The notes beneath the pieces were generated by a model. It had not been told where the DNA came from, did no database searches, and saw only the letters and a list, made by a program, of their open reading frames with translations. Position numbers and translations under genes: made by a program. A stretch of 64,000 nt of DNA from assembly GCF_009931435.1 (NCBI RefSeq), contig NZ_CP043415.1. One strand, written 5' to 3'. Origin of the DNA: Escherichia coli (GTDB lineage: Bacteria; Pseudomonadota; Gammaproteobacteria; Enterobacterales; Enterobacteriaceae). Below, piece after piece: positions 24,654 through 54,197 of the stretch (positions are counted from its first letter, which is position 1; every line of letters starts with the position of its first letter).

Positions 24654-25087
24654 TTATTCAGCTGGCAGTGCTATGCGCCACGGAAGCAGTTCGCTGACCC
24701 GGTTGACCGGCCAGTCTGCTATGACGCCAGGCACATGGCGAAGGTAGCTTTCTGGATCCACGTCATTCAGTTTGCACGTCCCGATCAGGCTGTACAGTAG
24801 CGCTCCCCGCTCACCACCATGGTCAGAGCCGAAGAACAGGAAGTTTTTACGACCCAGACTGACCGCCCGCAGGGCATTTTCAGCGATGTTGTTGTCGATT
24901 TCCACCCAGCCATCGTTCGCATAGTACGTCAGTGCCGGCCACTGGTTAAGTGCGTACGCGAACGCCTTCGCCAACTCTGAGTGTCGCGACAGGGTCTTCA
25001 TCTTTTCACGCAACCAGCTTTCCAGGGATTTCAACAGCGGTTTCGTTTTTCGCTGACGTTCAGCAAGCCGCTGCTCTGCCTGCTGCC
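24654..25087 (-). pseudogene. IS66-family transposase (TnpC) C-terminal fragment
   Basis: ...ALRAVSLGRKNFLFFGSDHGGERGALLYSLIGTCKLNDVDPESYLRHV is the IS66 TnpC C-terminal signature; GTAAGCG-type repeats at 24543-24620. Confidence 0.7.
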
Positions 25088-26102
25088 GCCATGAAGCAGA
25101 TTAAAGAACTTCAGCGCCTGCTCGGCAAGAAAACGATGGAAAATGAACTCCTCAAAGAAGCCGTTGAATATGGACGGGCAAAAAAGTGGATAGCGCACGC
25201 GCCCTTATTGCCCGGGGATGGGGAGTAAGCTTAGTCAGCCGTTGTCTCCGGGTGTCGCGTGCGCAGTTGCACGTCATTCTCAGACGAACCGATGACTGGA
25301 TGGATGGCCGCCGCAGTCGTCACACTGATGATACGGATGTGCTTCTCCGTATACACCATGTTATCGGAGAGCTGCCCACGTATGGTTATCGTCGGGTATG
25401 GGCGCTGCTTCGCAGACAGGCAGAACTTGATGGTATGCCTGCGATCAATGCCAAACGTGTTTACCGGATCATGCGCCAGAATGCGCTGTTGCTTGAGCGA
25501 AAACCTGCTGTACCGCCATCGAAACGGGCACATACAGGCAGAGTGGCTGTGAAAGAAAGTAATCAGCGATGGTGCTCTGACGGGTTCGAGTTCCGCTGTG
25601 ATAACGGAGAAAAACTGCGAGTCACGTTCGCGCTGGACTGCTGTGACCGTGAGGCACTGCACTGGGCGGTCACTACGGGCGGCTTCAACAGTGAAACAGT
25701 ACAGGACGTCATGCTGGGAGCGGTGGAACGCCGCTTCGGCAACGAGCTTCCGGCGTCTCCAGTAGAGTGGCTGACGGATAATGGTTCATGCTACCGGGCT
25801 AATGAAACACGGCAGTTTGCCCGGATGTTGGGGCTTGAACCGAAGAGCACGGCGGTGCGGAGTCCGGAGAGTAACGGCATAGCAGAGAGCTTCGTGAAAA
25901 CGATAAAGCGTGACTACATCAGTGTCATGCCCAAACCAGACGGGTTAACGGCAGCAAAGAACCTTGCAGAGGCGTTCGAGCATTATAACGAATGGCATCC
26001 GCATAGTGCACTGGGTTATCGCTCGCCACGGGAATATCTACGGCAGCAAGCCAGTAATGGGTTAAGTGATAACAGGTGTCTGGAAATATAGGGGCAAATC
26101 CA
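25088..26102 (+). mobile_element. IS2, 5'-truncated (~1.0 kb of 1.33 kb)
   Basis: InsC fragment from [35 protein letters not shown]; full InsD; right end ...GGGGCAAATCCA at 26102. Confidence 0.85.
25186..26091 (+). CDS. insD: IS2 transposase InsD (orfB)
   Basis: 301 aa matching IS2 InsD ([38 protein letters not shown]...). Confidence 0.9.
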
Positions 26103-26239
26103 GTGTCCTTGACCCACGATATTCAGACTGTCGTTGTATCTTAAGTTGACGTTACCCGCTGACTTTTATGTGTTGAAAAACATCCATTTTAGATGTTTTT
26201 CAATCTTTTGATTAGAAATACATATCGTTAACATGCAAA

Positions 26240-26527
26240 TCAATAGACAGCATGAATATTGATGGTTGCACCACAGGCCTGAGCATATTTTGTTAAAGTT
26301 TTCATACTGGCTCCTAAAGGATTACTTTCCAAGCGACTGATGGCTGACGGGCGTAACCCCATTCGTTCAGCCAGAGCAGACTTTGTTAACCCCGCTTTTT
26401 CTCTCATTTCGTACAACATTTCTACCATCTCCAGTTCCTTATCGGCATCTTCATACCCTTTGACAGCTTCTGGAGTATTAAGCAGTTTTTGCTTTACCTG
26501 ACTGAACGGAACACCTTTTACTTTCAT
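26240..26527 (-). CDS. HTH (XRE-type) antitoxin, HigA-like
   Basis: 95 aa; HTH LTKSALAERMGLRPSAISRLE; immediately downstream of and abutting the toxin gene. Confidence 0.7.
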   Translation of the reverse strand: MKVKGVPFSQVKQKLLNTPEAVKGYEDADKELEMVEMLYEMREKAGLTKSALAERMGLRPSAISRLESNPLGASMKTLTKYAQACGATINIHAVY

Positions 26528-26838
26528 TATTTCATCTCCTTCAGGCGCATCCTAGCGATTTCAATAGCTTTCGTTGGTGTCTTTTGCGTCTTTTTCACAA
26601 ATGCATGCAGCAGATAGATTTCGTTTCCAGTTGCATAAGCGTACAGTGTCCTTGCGATATTTTTATCCCCAACTCTCAGTTCAAAAAGTCCTCCGCCAAT
26701 TACACGACTATGAGGCATTTTCATTTTGTTACCTTCTTGTTCCAGTCGTTCAATCAGCCTAGCCATGCGACCACGCAGATTATCTGGTAATTCAATCAAC
26801 TCATTCAGTGCGGCCGGGTGAGTAATTACATTAAACAT
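26527..26838 (-). CDS. RelE/ParE-superfamily toxin, HigB-like (toxin gene first)
   Basis: ~103 aa from MFNVITHPAALNEL...; small basic protein upstream of an HTH antitoxin (HigBA-type order); start chosen at the internal ATG. Confidence 0.65.
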   Translation of the reverse strand: MFNVITHPAALNELIELPDNLRGRMARLIERLEQEGNKMKMPHSRVIGGGLFELRVGDKNIARTLYAYATGNEIYLLHAFVKKTQKTPTKAIEIARMRLKEMK

Positions 26839-27221
26839 ATTATAGCCTCCGAAAGGATAAAATACACCAGAACAGGAAAATTGCGCAAATATCAAATTTC
26901 ACTGATAAATGAAATACATGTTAAGTACAGTTTTGATGCCGCATCAGCGGCATGGAAGGCGGCATTCCGTTGTTGCATATGGCACAGGAGTAAAACCGCC
27001 GAAGCCCGGCGTCAGCCGGTACTGATTGATAGATTTCACCTTACCCATCTCCAGCCCTGCTAAGCCATACCCGTTTTCAGCCATGATAGAGCTTCTGTGC
27101 GCGGTCGGAGTGGTCCCGACGAGGGTTTACCCGAAGTCGGGGCGTATCTCCGCGTTAGCGGGCCGTCAGGGCCGCTTACGAGCGTGTACTCAATACTTCC
27201 AGCCAGAAGACTGACAGCGAT

Positions 27222-27782: not shown

Positions 27783-28640
27783 TCAGGGGGAAGCTGTGGC
27801 CAGCCGGCTGTAATTACGGTTACGTGACAGAATCATGCGCTCCTTCACACGACGCTCCACTTCGCGTTTTACCGCCTCACGACTGGCAGTGAAACGTCCT
27901 TCCGCGATTTCACGCGTCAGCTGCCGTTTCACCAGGGTGACAATATCCTGACGTTCCCTGTTCGCATCACGACGCGCACGGGCACGTTTTATTCCACGGG
28001 ACTTAAGCTCTGTCTGGTAACTGCGGAAACGCTCACGCACAAAACGCCAGGCTTTCGCTATCAGTTCATCCATACCCAGGGTATCCAGCCCCTGCTTTTT
28101 GCGCTGTCTGTTTTCCCATTCAACACGACTGCGGCGCGCAGCTGCCACTGCATCCTCAGACACATCAAGGGCAGCAAACAGAGCCGGTGTGAACGTGATG
28201 TCGGTCGGAATGTAGCACCCGATAAGCGGGTCATATTCCGTCTGGTAGGTAATCAGTCCCAGCTCTGACAGGAACGTCAGGGCCCGGGTGGCACGGGTGA
28301 TGGAGAGTTTTCCTGCACCGGACTCTGTCGCCAGTCCGCACTCAATGGCCAGCGTGGTGATGGAGCACTGGACGCGGTTGGCCAGCGGATCATAGTGAAA
28401 ACAGAGCCCCTGCAGCAGCGCATCAATGGCCCGGCGACGCAGTACCGGTGGCATGCGCCGACGCAGACCACGCGAACGGGCATGCGCCACATGAATGGCG
28501 AAATCAAAACGGGAGGAGAAGCCCACCGCCTTTTCCATCAGTTTTTCGCAGAACTTCAGCGTTCCGGCACCTTTACGGGGTGTAAACACCGGATTCGGGT
28601 TCTTTACCTGGCGGTAATACGTTTGTTGAAGATCAGTCAC
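27783..28640 (-). CDS. repA1: RepFIIA replication initiator RepA1, GTG start
   Basis: 285 aa from GTG ([40 protein letters not shown]...), near-identical to R100/R1 RepA1. Confidence 0.92.
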
Positions 28641-28707
28641 ACCATCCTGCACTTACAATGCGCAGAAGGAGTGAGCACAGAAAGAAGTCTTGAACTTTTC
28701 CGGGCAT
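28633..28707 (-). CDS. tap: repA leader peptide Tap (translational coupling to repA1)
   Basis: 24-aa [27 protein letters not shown] overlapping the repA1 GTG. Confidence 0.75.
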
Positions 28708-49053: not shown

Positions 49054-49368
49054 ATGGAAAAGCGATCTTTTAAAGAAAAACTGGAAATAATCAGAAACAT
49101 AATAAGAGAGTCGTTACTGGGAAATGCGGCAATTATTGCGCTGATATATGCAGCATCACATTCATTACCGGTCAATGCCTTCCCTGACTATCTTGTAATA
49201 AGTTTATTAAGTATCGCAGCAGTCATCGTTGTATTATGGTTATTTTCAATTATCTATATTTATTTTTGTGAGCTATTCAGAAGCCACTGGATTGCGGTAT
49301 GGTTTATCATATGGTCTTCAGTAATCAACCTCATTATTTTGTATGGTTTTTATGACCATTTTATATGA
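49054..49368 (+). CDS. artA: ArtA (anti-tra-strand gene)
   Basis: 104-aa hydrophobic ORF on the strand opposite the tra operon, between traQ and trbA as in F. Confidence 0.7.
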   Translation: MEKRSFKEKLEIIRNIIRESLLGNAAIIALIYAASHSLPVNAFPDYLVISLLSIAAVIVVLWLFSIIYIYFCELFRSHWIAVWFIIWSSVINLIILYGFYDHFI

Positions 49369-49369
49369 C

Positions 49370-49717
49370 TTAGCCTGTCATAAGCCCCCTTATAAAAAAC
49401 CACATCACTCCGGACCATACCGATGACAACACAATACAGATAAATATTCTTCTGAACCTGTCGAAGCTCGTAACGTCCGGTAATGCGGCCGCAACTATTG
49501 AAACAACCAGTGCTGCGCCCTGACTCATAATTGCACCACACAGAAACCAGAGACTGGCGGTAAGCACATATAAACACGCGATATTAATAACAAGGAAAAC
49601 CAGTGAGCTCAGGAGAAACATTTTCCTGTCATTACGCTCAGAAAAGAAATAACCGGCAATAATGACAAACATTAACAGAACAACACCTGTAAACATTTTC
49701 AAATAATCTTCACTCAT
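49370..49717 (-). CDS. trbA: TrbA
   Basis: 115-aa membrane protein, F order. Confidence 0.8.
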   Translation of the reverse strand: MSEDYLKMFTGVVLLMFVIIAGYFFSERNDRKMFLLSSLVFLVINIACLYVLTASLWFLCGAIMSQGAALVVSIVAAALPDVTSFDRFRRIFICIVLSSVWSGVMWFFIRGLMTG

Positions 49718-49732
49718 AAATCAAATCCGCGA

Positions 49733-50476
49733 TTAAAAATTGGGTTTAAAATCTTCAGAAACGTTCAGGAACTGTTTTGCCAGGTCGTCCTGCGAAATAA
49801 AGCCGTATGATAACGGGCGAACACTGCCCTGTTTCGGGTCAACCAGCATCATGGCCGGGAAATATTTCACGCCGAGGCGCTGCGCCTGCCCCTGGTCAGT
49901 CCGGGAATCCGGCAACAGCGGATTAATCACGCCATCCACGGAAACGGGAATAACACTCAGACCATACGTATCCCGGAAGCCATTAATGACCTGCGCCAGT
50001 TGCCCGTCGATGGGGTCCTGCCCCCGGTAAAAAAACATGATGCCGTAGTGTTCAGCCAGTTTCGCAATGGCCTGTCGCTGCTGCGCCTGGTCTGCTGCCA
50101 GCTGGTTCCGTACCGTGCCGTTGTAATGGCTGTACTGCAGGTTATAGTCCAGTTCAGGATGTGCCAGCATGGCCTTTCTGGCGCTCATGGTGAAAAGCCC
50201 GGCCTGCTGAGTCCAGTAATTTTGCAGCCGGAAATATTTCACAAAATTATCCACGCCGGGATACAGAATGGCTTCGTACAGCGCCCGCTTTGTTGCCGTC
50301 TGCAGTGCGGCCAGTTTCTGCATAATATCCGGTTCCTGACGGGGGGCTGCAGGTACAGGTTTATTTTCTTTTTCCTTCGGATTTATTTTCTCGTTATACC
50401 ACTGCCAGCCTGCATCTTTTCCTGACGCCGGAAAGATAAAGCAGCAGAGTAACAGTGGCAGTAATGCTTTATTCAT
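49733..50476 (-). CDS. traF: pilus assembly thioredoxin-like protein TraF
   Basis: 247 aa from MNKALLPLLLCCFIFPASG (signal peptide). Confidence 0.9.
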   Translation of the reverse strand: MNKALLPLLLCCFIFPASGKDAGWQWYNEKINPKEKENKPVPAAPRQEPDIMQKLAALQTATKRALYEAILYPGVDNFVKYFRLQNYWTQQAGLFTMSARKAMLAHPELDYNLQYSHYNGTVRNQLAADQAQQRQAIAKLAEHYGIMFFYRGQDPIDGQLAQVINGFRDTYGLSVIPVSVDGVINPLLPDSRTDQGQAQRLGVKYFPAMMLVDPKQGSVRPLSYGFISQDDLAKQFLNVSEDFKPNF

Positions 50477-50729
50477 CTTCATTCCTTTCATCACTTTTTC
50501 TTTCATCAGGTTTCTGCAGGTCAGTCAGGGCAGAAAAACAAAAATACAGAATAAACAGGAGCACACCGGAGTAAAGGATAACGAAAGCAGCGGCAAGCAT
50601 CCCGTCTGCCGTGGTTTCTTTTACCGTATCCCACGACCAGATAATTACCGGAGAAATGACAATCGCTGTAATCAAAAGCCGGATAAGAAAATCAATAAAA
50701 CGGTTCGACGTGAATATGACTTTCATCAT
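50469..50729 (-). CDS. trbE: TrbE
   Basis: 86-aa membrane protein overlapping the traF start. Confidence 0.8.
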   Translation of the reverse strand: MMKVIFTSNRFIDFLIRLLITAIVISPVIIWSWDTVKETTADGMLAAAFVILYSGVLLFILYFCFSALTDLQKPDERKSDERNEDE

Positions 50730-50752
50730 TTCCCCCGGTTATTTCCCATACC

Positions 50753-52561
50753 TTACTGTCCTGCCTGTTTCAGCTGGTCAGCAATCTGCTCTTTCACTTT
50801 CTGCGTCAGAACGCCACTGTCCGGGATTTTCTGGTTATTCATCAGGTCTTCGTAGAAGTTAGTGAAATCCAGTCTGTTGAACTGAATTTTCTGCAGCTCA
50901 TCAACCGTAATCCCCCGACAGTCAGGATGCTTCGCACTACCAAAACTGATACGCAACTGACCGTTGCGCCCCTGCTGCTGGACTATCTGCGCCAGCTTCG
51001 AATCAAACTGACAGTAGCTGCGTTTTTTCTCCAGACAGACACCCAGCACTTTCTTCGAACAGAACTCCCCGACGCTGACGGTCAGTTTGTTTGATTTTGC
51101 TTTAGCCAGGGCCTTTTCATCACTGCTGCATTTGGCCAGCCCGATATCCTGTCCCCAGCCGCTGTCCTTACAGCAGTTGCTGTATCCGGCTGCAGCCTTC
51201 TTACAAAATTTCGCCTGACCGGTGAAAGCACGGACATCCACCCCGTTCAGCGCCGCAACATCCTTACCTGCTGCGGCCAGTGCCGCCAGCTGAGAAACGG
51301 CTTCGGCAAAATCATTACTCTGCCCGCTCTGAGCCTTATCGCATTCGCCATCGAGACAGAAGACGTCTCCCCCACAGACCATCACTTTCCCGGATGTTTT
51401 TGACTCACAGGAGTACGTGGCATATTCATGCAGACAGGCACCTTCTTCGGAGTAAAAGGCACACTGGTGTGACACCAGGGTACAGGCAGGATTGTCGGTG
51501 TAGGTCTGACAGGTTCCCTTGTCTGCTGACTGCGTGACATACGTGTCCCGGTATGCCCAGCAGCTCTGGTACATGCTGTATGACTGACCGTCTTTCACCA
51601 GCGTCCTGTTCCCGCCAGCCTCCGTACATTCTGTTTTTGTCAGTTTCCCCAGCTCCTTGCTGAACGGGCAGCTTTCAGACCAGACAACATACGGGGTGTA
51701 CGAGGCTTTTTTTACCCTGACAACCAGACGCAGCTTCATTGCCGTATGACGTTTGAATTTTGTATTCCCGACCCGGACGGGGTGAGATGACGTAAAAGCC
51801 ACACCGGCAGTCAGTGTTTTCTGTACTGGTGTAAATGAGGCATCTGCTGAGTATTTGGCATTCCAGCTCAGTGGGGTTCCCAGTACTGTAATTGTCATAG
51901 GTACACTCTTCTGCAGGTAAGTACGACTCCAGCTGTAATGCGCATCGACAATTTCACCGGTAACGGGAGAGGTAATGGAGACAACATACTGACCATTCAC
52001 TTCACGTGCAGGTAGCTGACTCATTTCATACTCCAGCGTCCGGGTTTCCCATGTGGTACTCCCCTGCAGCTCCATACGGGCAGTTCGTGTGCAGTACTGC
52101 TCCACCTGTAAATCCCGCTCACAGGTGTAATTCGTGTATTCACTCCTGCTAATCTCCTGCGCACTGCACTGCTGCCCGGTGTTTCCCACAATGCTGTCAG
52201 CCCGGTTCACCACATCCCTGCCGGTCTGGATAAACGGTGCATCCGGTGAAAGAATGTCTTTCGGCTTGTTCATGAATGACTCTGTAATGGTTTTTCCGGT
52301 TTCACCGGTCGCCCATTCCGTGGTGCCGTCATTTTTCAGGCCGCCATCCCCGCCGGCAGTCACGCCACCGTAATATTTTGTCTCGTCCGGATTCGCGTTA
52401 TAGCCGGGGATACTCTCCTGTGGCTTAAAGCCCTGAATACTGCTGCTTCCCTGCCCTTTGATCTGGTGAGCAAAATCAGAACCGGCCCGGTAATCACTGT
52501 TGCTGTCAGCCTGTGCCATGCCGGCAACCAGAGCCAGTATCAGAGGTAAAATACGTTTCAT
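50753..52561 (-). CDS. traN: mating-pair stabilisation outer-membrane protein TraN
   Basis: 602 aa, Cys-rich C-terminal half, signal peptide. Confidence 0.93.
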   Translation of the reverse strand: MKRILPLILALVAGMAQADSNSDYRAGSDFAHQIKGQGSSSIQGFKPQESIPGYNANPDETKYYGGVTAGGDGGLKNDGTTEWATGETGKTITESFMNKPKDILSPDAPFIQTGRDVVNRADSIVGNTGQQCSAQEISRSEYTNYTCERDLQVEQYCTRTARMELQGSTTWETRTLEYEMSQLPAREVNGQYVVSITSPVTGEIVDAHYSWSRTYLQKSVPMTITVLGTPLSWNAKYSADASFTPVQKTLTAGVAFTSSHPVRVGNTKFKRHTAMKLRLVVRVKKASYTPYVVWSESCPFSKELGKLTKTECTEAGGNRTLVKDGQSYSMYQSCWAYRDTYVTQSADKGTCQTYTDNPACTLVSHQCAFYSEEGACLHEYATYSCESKTSGKVMVCGGDVFCLDGECDKAQSGQSNDFAEAVSQLAALAAAGKDVAALNGVDVRAFTGQAKFCKKAAAGYSNCCKDSGWGQDIGLAKCSSDEKALAKAKSNKLTVSVGEFCSKKVLGVCLEKKRSYCQFDSKLAQIVQQQGRNGQLRISFGSAKHPDCRGITVDELQKIQFNRLDFTNFYEDLMNNQKIPDSGVLTQKVKEQIADQLKQAGQ

Positions 52562-53199
52562 TTCCCGGAATCTCCTTTCCCTGCCAGTAAATCATGAGCC
52601 ACCTGCCGGCAGTCACCCGTGGCGGCCACTTTCTCCAGCGCCTGGCCGACCCGCAGGTTTCCCCGGATGATGTCGTATCCCTGACTGCAGAACACCACCA
52701 GTGCCGGTACAGTGCGAATGCCGTACTGTGAAAACAGCGTCGGGTCGATCTGAACACCATCAGTCGCGCCGTCTTTCACCAGGGACAACACAGCTTCAGC
52801 GGTGGTCTTCAGGTCATTGTTCACCATGCCCCGCAGTGTGGCCGGAATACCGTAGTGCCGGGTTTCGCCCAGCATTCGTTTCAGCCCCTCTTCGGGAATG
52901 GAAAACGACACAAAATACAGAGCACCCTGCCGGGGTTTCCCGTCCTGCGAAGCCTGCTGTTTACGAACCAGCTCATCCAGGAAATGGTTATCTGAACGCT
53001 GAAGGGGGTTTTCCAGCACCTGTTTCTCCGCCCAGGCTTTCAGCTGATGGTCAGGTTTTTCACGCAGTTGTCTGCTTAAATTTTCCTGCTGCTTCAGGAA
53101 CTGGCGGTTTTCAGGAGTGTTCACGTTTTCTGACGCCATAACCGCCCCGTTCAGCATCATCAGCAGTGCTGCCAGAGATTTCATACTCAGCTTCATCAT
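52558..53199 (-). CDS. trbC: pilus assembly protein TrbC
   Basis: 213 aa with signal peptide; F order. Confidence 0.9.
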   Translation of the reverse strand: MMKLSMKSLAALLMMLNGAVMASENVNTPENRQFLKQQENLSRQLREKPDHQLKAWAEKQVLENPLQRSDNHFLDELVRKQQASQDGKPRQGALYFVSFSIPEEGLKRMLGETRHYGIPATLRGMVNNDLKTTAEAVLSLVKDGATDGVQIDPTLFSQYGIRTVPALVVFCSQGYDIIRGNLRVGQALEKVAATGDCRQVAHDLLAGKGDSGK

Positions 53200-53204
53200 T
53201 CACC

Positions 53205-54197
53205 TCACAGGAAGACACAGTTACGTTTACGCCACATCAGGTAGCCGAAGTTTTTCTTTGTGTTGGGCGGATTTTTCCCGGTTTCCCAGCGGGTCACGCT
53301 GCGCCCGAACGGGTGGCACTGCCCGCTGTCCGGGTACATATTCACCATCTGGTAACGCCAGCGTTCTTTGGGCAGGATTGGGGACGGATATTCATTACAG
53401 ACGGCGTTATTTTTCCCGATGGTTTCCATAATCATGCCCTGACGGTGCAGCTTGAACGCCATGCGTTCACTGACCAGCAGGGAGGACTGCAACGGACTGG
53501 ACTCATTACTCACCCAGCCATTGAACGGGTACATACTGCCCTGCGAACCGGCACACCAGAACAGAACATCGAGAGGCATATTAAAGGCGCTGGCAATCGC
53601 ATCTGCTGCACAGGCCCCCTGTGCTATCGGATTGGCAAAGATGACAGCTTCCGGATTGAGAATGGTGGTCAGGCTGCTGTCCGTCCAGGTGGGGTCGATT
53701 TCAGAAAGATAAGCGATATCCAGGTCACCACCTTCCAGACAGCCCAGCGATGTGATGATGTTAAGCCAGTACGTCAGCGGGTATTTGTACCAGTGAACGT
53801 GATAGAACGCCCCGTTCACCTGCTTCTCATCCTTTTTCGCCGTTCCCTGTGCCGTTTTACCAAAAGCCGGCAGGCTGAAGCCCAGGTTCACCATGCATCC
53901 CGGTGATCGGGTGACGTCCGTCAGCGCCATCGGCTCCCAGTAACCAATGGCCAGCCCGATACGCCTGAACAGCGGCGGCGGTGCCGGACAAATCTGAATG
54001 GGCATCGACGGGTTCGCCGTGTCGGGGACCTTACCCTGACTGACTTTGATACTGCCCAGCGAGAGCGGGAAAATACAGCTCCAGCAGATATCCGTGATCG
54101 GGTTTACAAAACGCCCCTCACAGGCAGAATCCGCAGACGCTGCAGGGACATGACCGGCGAGAAGGAATAACATCAGCAGCCACAGGCTTCGCTTCAT
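53205..54197 (-). CDS. traU: TraU
   Basis: 330 aa, signal peptide, Cys-rich; F order. Confidence 0.93.
   Translation of the reverse strand: MKRSLWLLMLFLLAGHVPAASADSACEGRFVNPITDICWSCIFPLSLGSIKVSQGKVPDTANPSMPIQICPAPPPLFRRIGLAIGYWEPMALTDVTRSPGCMVNLGFSLPAFGKTAQGTAKKDEKQVNGAFYHVHWYKYPLTYWLNIITSLGCLEGGDLDIAYLSEIDPTWTDSSLTTILNPEAVIFANPIAQGACAADAIASAFNMPLDVLFWCAGSQGSMYPFNGWVSNESSPLQSSLLVSERMAFKLHRQGMIMETIGKNNAVCNEYPSPILPKERWRYQMVNMYPDSGQCHPFGRSVTRWETGKNPPNTKKNFGYLMWRKRNCVFL

Follow-up and report, generated by a model that had tools for sequence, protein, structure and literature searches.

A blunt joint between truncated ISEc8 and IS2 elements on a pVir-type IncF virulence plasmid of Escherichia coli

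Two insertion sequence remnants downstream of cdtC

The window analysed here, a 64,000-nucleotide stretch of Escherichia coli DNA, comes from a large, conjugative pVir-type plasmid of the IncF group (FIA/FIB/FIC). Between cdtC and a RelE/HTH toxin-antitoxin pair, the 3′ part of an ISEc8 element on the minus strand directly abuts the 3′ part of an IS2 element on the plus strand (Table 1). Over 2.2 kb around this joint (window 24100-26300), NZ_CP065971.1 and three other plasmids are 100% identical to the window and a fifth plasmid is 99.9% identical. The window aligns with NZ_CP065971.1, a complete plasmid of 128 kb, in four collinear blocks at 99.96-100% identity, and this record encodes hlyC, cnf2, cdtABC of type III, aerobactin genes, an autotransporter locus, RepFIIA/RepFIB and a full tra region. 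Two differences separate the sequences: about 2.8 kb of the record (8292-11078) is missing at window position 19340, and a stretch of roughly 80 bp differs at 3404-3486. The window thus derives from a close relative of NZ_CP065971.1 and not from that exact record.

Table 1. Features on either side of the ISEc8-IS2 joint, in window coordinates
Feature	Position	Strand	Remarks
cdtC	end at 24058		
IS110-family transposase pseudogene fragment	about 24168-24338		RefSeq annotation, placed by the 8260-bp offset between record and window
Pseudogene fragment	about 24354-24542		RefSeq annotation, same 8260-bp offset
ISEc23-like IS66-family terminal sequence	24544-24577	+	34 bp; palindrome GTAAGCGTCAA...TTGACGCTTAC
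Subterminal piece of a second IS66-family element	24576-24616	+	41 bp; tnpC 3′ end and downstream sequence
ISEc8 (IS66 family) 3′ remnant	24617-25080	minus	element positions 1979-2445, last 464 bp
ISEc8 right IR tip	starts 24617	read on +	GTAAGCG...
tnpC′ of ISEc8	24654-25079	minus	C-terminal 141 codons and stop
Breakpoint	25080/25081		blunt join, 0 nt microhomology
IS2 (IS3 family) 3′ remnant	25081-26102	plus	element positions 310-1331, last three quarters
IS2 orfA tail	25082-25228	plus	48 codons; coordinates include the stop
-1 frameshift motif A AAA AAG (A6G)	25180-25186	plus	intact
IS2 orfB	25186-26091	plus	intact, 301 codons
IS2 right IR tip	ends 26102	plus	...GGGGCAAATCCA
Original right-hand flank of the IS2 insertion	26103-26163		common to plasmids with a complete IS2 here
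RelE-family toxin and HTH antitoxin pair	26240-26895	minus	
RepFIIA repA	27783-28652		

The left-hand piece was assigned by BLAST with the complete 2445-bp ISEc8 of pEc673-2, positions 1979-2445 of which match window 25080-24617 at 99.1% identity (E = 0); a multiple alignment gives identical limits. It is ISEc8 by nucleotide identity, although of the two terminal inverted repeats beginning GTAAGCG only the right tip is present, and the full set of tnpA, tnpB and tnpC is not. The complete reference carries a 513-codon tnpC alongside tnpA and tnpB, and the remnant has lost the left inverted repeat, tnpA, tnpB and about 372 codons from the N-terminal side of tnpC, and with them most of the DDE_Tnp_IS66 domain. 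Pfam places what remains, the minus-strand frame 24657-25079, at positions 194-283 of the 284-position DDE_Tnp_IS66 profile and also finds the IS66 C-terminal element IS66_C. A BLAST search with complete ISEc8 found no match to element positions 1-1978 anywhere in the window. A preliminary description of this DNA, made from the sequence, had reported IS66 TnpC-derived sequence on the minus strand, starting at 24654 and running up to about 25087. The tnpC remnant is real, and BLAST and alignment refine the rest: the element is ISEc8 and not IS66 itself, position 24654 is merely the tnpC stop codon, with the remnant continuing to the inverted repeat tip at 24617, and the far limit lies at the breakpoint given in Table 1.

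In element orientation, the right flank of the ISEc8 remnant reads CCGTATTG. Comparison of the remnant with the complete ISEc8 found on this plasmid type shows 2 differences in 463 positions (99.6% identity). Relative to the ISEc8 of pEc673-2, one ATG of an ATGATG repeat, corresponding to a TnpC His codon, is missing at 24819-24821; this unit is likewise missing from the complete ISEc8 just mentioned, which marks the change as a lineage variant and not as decay of the stub. RefSeq labels the piece 'IS66 family transposase, incomplete, missing N-terminus'.

The right-hand piece matches positions 310-1331 of the complete 1331-bp IS2 of pEc673-2 at 97.4% identity (E = 0), and a multiple alignment with two complete IS2 copies was also used to set its limits. 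Identity is higher, at 99.3%, when window 25081-26300 (query positions 982-2201) is compared with the IS2 and right flank of pSTEC2018_607-c. The piece is thereby IS2 by nucleotide identity, although it retains the tip of IRR alone of the two inverted repeats, the first 309 positions, IRL included, being absent. The frame 25186-26088 encodes a full IS2 OrfB with the Pfam domains HTH_21, rve and rve_3. In the complete element orfA starts at position 92, and the remnant has neither this start codon nor the first 72 orfA codons. Judging from the sequence, it would thus be unable to yield an OrfAB transposase with the N-terminal DNA-binding part. The IS2 promoter region lies in the left end of the element, and a consensus promoter scan of the plus strand found no sigma-70-like site upstream of the remnant. 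A 92-codon open reading frame (24950-25228) spans the joint and fuses antisense tnpC to the orfA tail, with nothing to support its expression. Close to where orfB ends, four substitutions cluster at 26048-26053 (aa..ca in place of GG..TT in two complete IS2 copies) and change RAC to QAS in OrfB; the remainder of the remnant is about 99% identical to pSTEC2018_607-c. RefSeq labels this piece 'IS3 family transposase, frameshifted, incomplete, missing N-terminus'. With the IS2 remnant lacking IRL and the ISEc8 remnant lacking its left end, each retains a single end, and for this reason neither is predicted to be capable of transposition.

Further insertion sequence debris lies on both sides of these remnants. 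Directly downstream of cdtC are the IS110 fragment and the second, unassigned pseudogene fragment, the latter without a Pfam match in the one frame that was searched. Next comes a 34-bp ISEc23-like scrap, for which thousands of E. coli records have a match at the end of an ISEc23-family element; it abuts the 41-bp piece of another IS66-family element. This 41-bp piece is identical to part of an intact IS66-family element in NZ_CP124508.1, where the intact copy runs 18 more bases to its tip. It represents the original right-hand flank of ISEc8, which implies that the truncation of ISEc8 came after its insertion into the end of a different IS66-family element. The stacking of three IS66-family elements within 540 bp hints at a preference of such elements for each other's ends.

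To the right of the IS2 remnant, the flank is GTGTC. The 61 bp next to the IS2 tip (26103-26163) also accompany an IS2 right end in the plasmid pSTEC506 (CP061240.1, 4024-4167), in surroundings that are otherwise unrelated; no IS2 target-site duplication was found at this site in pSTEC506, where the shared right flank is limited to those 61 bp. On that plasmid the 61 bp are followed by an inverted IS2-like segment, 82% identical to window 25960-26047 near the 3′ end of orfB, and the 61-bp flank may be part of an older unit bounded by insertion sequences. A terminator-like structure at 26172-26204, made up of a 13-pair AT-rich hairpin and a T-rich tail, separates the right end of IS2 from the end of the HTH antitoxin gene.

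The breakpoint and its distribution

Alignment to the element references, which the preliminary description had proposed as the way to place the breakpoint, resolves it to a single position. In a three-way comparison of the window with both parents, base 25080 (C) fits ISEc8 alone and base 25081 (T) fits IS2 alone. Written on the plus strand of the window with a slash at the breakpoint, ISEc8 reads ...GCCGCTGCTCTGCC/GGCATTCC, the pEc673-2 copy of IS2 reads ...CCTCTGAACT/TGCTGCCACC and the window reads ...GCCGCTGCTCTGCC/TGCTGCCGCC; the IS2 copy of pSTEC2018_607-c reads ...TGCTGCCGCC at this point. There are zero foreign bases between ISEc8 position 1979 and IS2 position 310. A hidden microhomology was considered on the grounds that megablast alignments ran 12 bases past the joint with some ISEc8 variants and began 10-15 bases before it with some IS2 variants. 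When two such variants were aligned, these extensions proved to be scattered chance matches, and a strict test returned 0 nt.

These alignments, together with the Pfam matches, bear out the view that plus-strand IS2 sequence is joined directly to the IS66-family piece and that neither element is complete (ISEc8 lacks positions 1-1978 and IS2 positions 1-309). They equally agree that no inverted repeat lies at the joint, as neither the IS2 IRL nor the ISEc8 left end is found at 25080/25081. An IS2 left inverted repeat at the junction had been named beforehand as the result that would overturn the description. A search allowing up to 3 mismatches found none near the joint, and the sole match elsewhere in the window is a 46-bp stub. 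This IS2-like left inverted repeat (10745-10790, minus strand, 93% identity) sits within partial transposase pseudogenes (IS30, IS3 and others) beside IS100, and its length and divergence rule it out as the left end that the IS2 remnant has lost.

We used a 200-bp probe centred on the joint to follow its distribution. Seven PLSDB plasmids and three RefSeq complete genomes match the probe over its full length at 100%, and thousands of other records match one half of it only. The joint-positive records come from Germany, China (Tibet Plateau) and elsewhere, and their recorded sources, where stated, are cattle faeces, Bos taurus and yak. The presence of an identical joint across independent records excludes an assembly artefact. 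It also indicates that the joint goes back to one ancestral event inherited within a bovine pVir-like (cnf2 / cdt-III) IncF lineage.

Origin of the joint

In our view a pVir-like IncF virulence plasmid very probably underwent one non-homologous (illegitimate) deletion, of which the joint is the inert scar. On this reading, ISEc8 would originally have lain on the minus strand downstream of cdtC, where it had entered the terminal part of another IS66-family element, and IS2 would have lain on the plus strand at a GTGTCCTTGACCC site, upstream of the RelE/HTH pair and the RepFIIA replicon. The two elements would then have had their left ends turned towards each other, with some DNA between them. 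A single deletion could have taken ISEc8 positions 1-1978, the intervening DNA and IS2 positions 1-309, joining the two interiors without common bases. The now lost left junction of ISEc8 in the other IS66-family element would be predicted to read as the reverse complement of the ISEc8 left tip followed by CAATACGG and CGCTCTGTTGACGCTTAC.

The orientations of the remnants bear on this reconstruction, because ISEc8 points leftward and IS2 rightward with their missing left ends facing, an arrangement for which one deletion is sufficient. The right-hand side also has a counterpart in pSTEC2018_607-c, which carries a complete 1331-bp IS2 with an identical right flank and is collinear with the window over the 5.2 kb that begin at IRR. 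This shared right-hand site shows that IS2 was once whole here and lost its first 309 bp in place. On its left side, the IS2 of pSTEC2018_607-c adjoins a different part of the shared backbone without a 5-bp duplication, from which it follows that this copy underwent a rearrangement of its own. The search turned up no plasmid or genome in which a complete ISEc8 with this flank is linked to a complete IS2 at this position, and the loss of the two left ends is accordingly only probably a single event.

One candidate for the ancestral state was rejected. In pNADC1036IncF and in the yak plasmid, a full-length ISEc8 lies beside the cdt-side scraps; its other end is in a truncated rarD, and there is no matching 8-bp duplication. 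Neither the window nor NZ_CP065971.1 contains a match to the rarD flank. Being hybrids without a target-site duplication, these ISEc8 copies are recombinants and not the ancestor.

The joint itself narrows the kind of process involved. It is not RecA-dependent, since it contains no homology; it is not transposase-made, since no element ends take part; and slippage does not fit, since there is no repeat. Short-homology-independent illegitimate recombination is a process of E. coli. We infer from the 0-nt joint that this process, or double-strand-break end joining of the LigA-dependent alternative type, fits better than slippage or RecA-mediated recombination. LigA-dependent alternative end joining in E. 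coli is described, in the passage of PMC4872102 that refers to Chayot et al. 2010, as producing large deletions with microhomologies as joining points. The microhomologies of that passage are absent at the joint, which counts against alternative end joining, although sequence alone cannot separate it from illegitimate recombination.

Other histories have to be set against a single deletion. Each element might have been truncated separately, with a last deletion then removing the DNA between them. The neighbourhood consists of insertion sequence scraps (an IS110 fragment, two other IS66-family scraps and an IS3 copy), and repeated ISEc8-mediated reshuffling makes multi-step histories common in pVir-like plasmids; even so, there is no third element at the joint and not one foreign base, and one deletion is enough given the orientations, so that we regard several successive events as unlikely. 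An inversion with breakpoints inside ISEc8 and IS2, whose reciprocal joint was lost later, would exploit a kind of rearrangement that clearly happens between insertion sequence copies on these plasmids. This would predict a second product elsewhere, yet BLAST of complete IS2 and ISEc8 against the whole 128 kb of NZ_CP065971.1 revealed no reciprocal joint. The same search recovered one full ISEc8 (102123-104562), the ISEc8 stub, the IS2 remnant and two tiny IRL-like scraps, and the record contains neither IS2 positions 1-309 nor an ISEc8 cut at 1978; the other IS2-like sequence is confined to the 46-bp IRL stub, which has the wrong length and, at 93% identity, the wrong divergence. The absence of a reciprocal product favours deletion over inversion, and we hold the latter to be very improbable.

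A joint made by a transposase, through insertion of IS2 in ISEc8 tnpC or through a deletion adjacent to an insertion sequence end, has a precedent in the frequency with which such elements enter one another, as ISEc8 has done here in another IS66-family element. Joints of this origin carry an element end, however, and at this one IS2 begins at 310 and ISEc8 runs to 1979 with no inverted repeat; the chance of such an origin is accordingly minimal. The view of the preliminary description that this is a deletion or recombination junction and not an insertion is supported by both truncations being internal and by the missing reciprocal product in NZ_CP065971.1. Equally hard to credit is a chimera of two repeated elements introduced during assembly. 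IS2 and ISEc8 are multicopy repeats of a kind that assemblies can join wrongly, but the identical joint occurs in 7 complete plasmid records that bear different strain and sample names and come from several sources and countries.

The remnants might also be other than silent. Read-through from upstream into the IS2 remnant could produce an N-truncated OrfA or OrfAB, with a leucine-zipper tail, an intact catalytic OrfB and no DNA-binding head, that could influence further IS2 copies of the cell in trans, for example as a dominant-negative partner. The 464-bp ISEc8 stub, for its part, might be a switch whose repeated inversions rearrange the toxin region in plasmids of the pVir type. We think such roles very improbable. 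The preferred reading, an inert scar of one deletion, describes ordinary non-functional insertion sequence debris, a neutral scar of very little biological weight. Its uses are practical ones. Among bovine cnf2/cdt-III IncF plasmids, one group can be traced by PCR with the breakpoint between ISEc8 1979 and IS2 310 as a lineage marker, and the joint offers a clean natural case of a deletion with 0-bp microhomology in E. coli. In annotation, both pieces are better labelled remnants than transposase genes.

Later exchange of the stub and comparison with known elements

The ISEc8 stub survives as a 464-bp homology patch only, and its left-hand context differs among the plasmids that carry the joint. 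In 5 of the 7 joint-positive plasmids the stub retains its cdt-side flank. In the other two, NZ_CP132064.1 (yak) and CP057933.1, identity to the window begins exactly at the ISEc8 tip, and to the left of it both carry the flank of the other ISEc8 copy, while their cdt-side scraps sit beside a full-length ISEc8. Comparison of NZ_CP132064.1 regions 8393-20592 and 49111-58752 showed that its stub is followed by the heptosyltransferase/autotransporter locus that adjoins the complete ISEc8 in NZ_CP065971.1, and that the stub bears the altered tip of that complete copy. The cdt-side scraps of NZ_CP132064.1 instead adjoin a full-length ISEc8, the tnpC of which is annotated as a frameshifted pseudogene.

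In NZ_CP065971.1, the complete ISEc8 (102115-104575) has an 8-bp duplication, GCTTATTA, on both sides. Its right tip reads CGCTTAT/TA... instead of CGCTTAC/GCTTATTA, an alteration that is consistent with a 6-bp collapse of a CGCTTA CGCTTA tandem formed by the inverted repeat tip and the duplication. The occurrence of GCTTATTA on both sides of the complete copy suggests that it has kept its original flanks and that the arrangement in the window is the older one. On the simplest reading, the stub has recombined with a complete ISEc8 in 2 of the 7 plasmids by homologous exchange within its 464 bp. These plasmids carry at least three ISEc8 sites with permuted flanks. Such exchange between the stub and complete copies means that dead insertion sequence fragments still drive structural variation around toxin genes.

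Comparison with the parent elements underlines how much of each is gone. With ISEc8, the remnant shares 99.1% identity over positions 1979-2445, the GTAAGCG right tip and the C-terminal part of TnpC, whereas the left inverted repeat, tnpA, tnpB and some 372 tnpC codons are missing. With IS2 of E. coli, the other remnant shares 97-99% identity over positions 310-1331, the right inverted repeat tip, the A6G motif and an intact OrfB; unlike the reference copies, it has no IRL, promoter region or OrfA start and carries the four substitutions at 26048-26053.

At the level of the plasmid, the setting is a familiar one. pVir68 is a plasmid with cnf2, cdtIII and F17 (PMC4267768), and the gene set of NZ_CP065971.1 agrees with its published description (PMC4267768). 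The context common to IncF virulence plasmids of the pVir68 type comprises hlyC, cnf2, cdtABC type III, aerobactin, RepFIIA/FIB/FIA and the tra region. The feature described here is already on record, in that RefSeq lists both pieces as partial transposase pseudogenes; to this the present analysis adds where exactly the breakpoint lies, the 0 nt of microhomology, the descent of the joint from one event and the recombination that the stub later underwent. Set beside the insertion sequence debris of other pVir68-type plasmids, the joint shows no difference in kind, and it is distinguished by an exactly placed breakpoint, the absence of microhomology and a defined distribution within one lineage.
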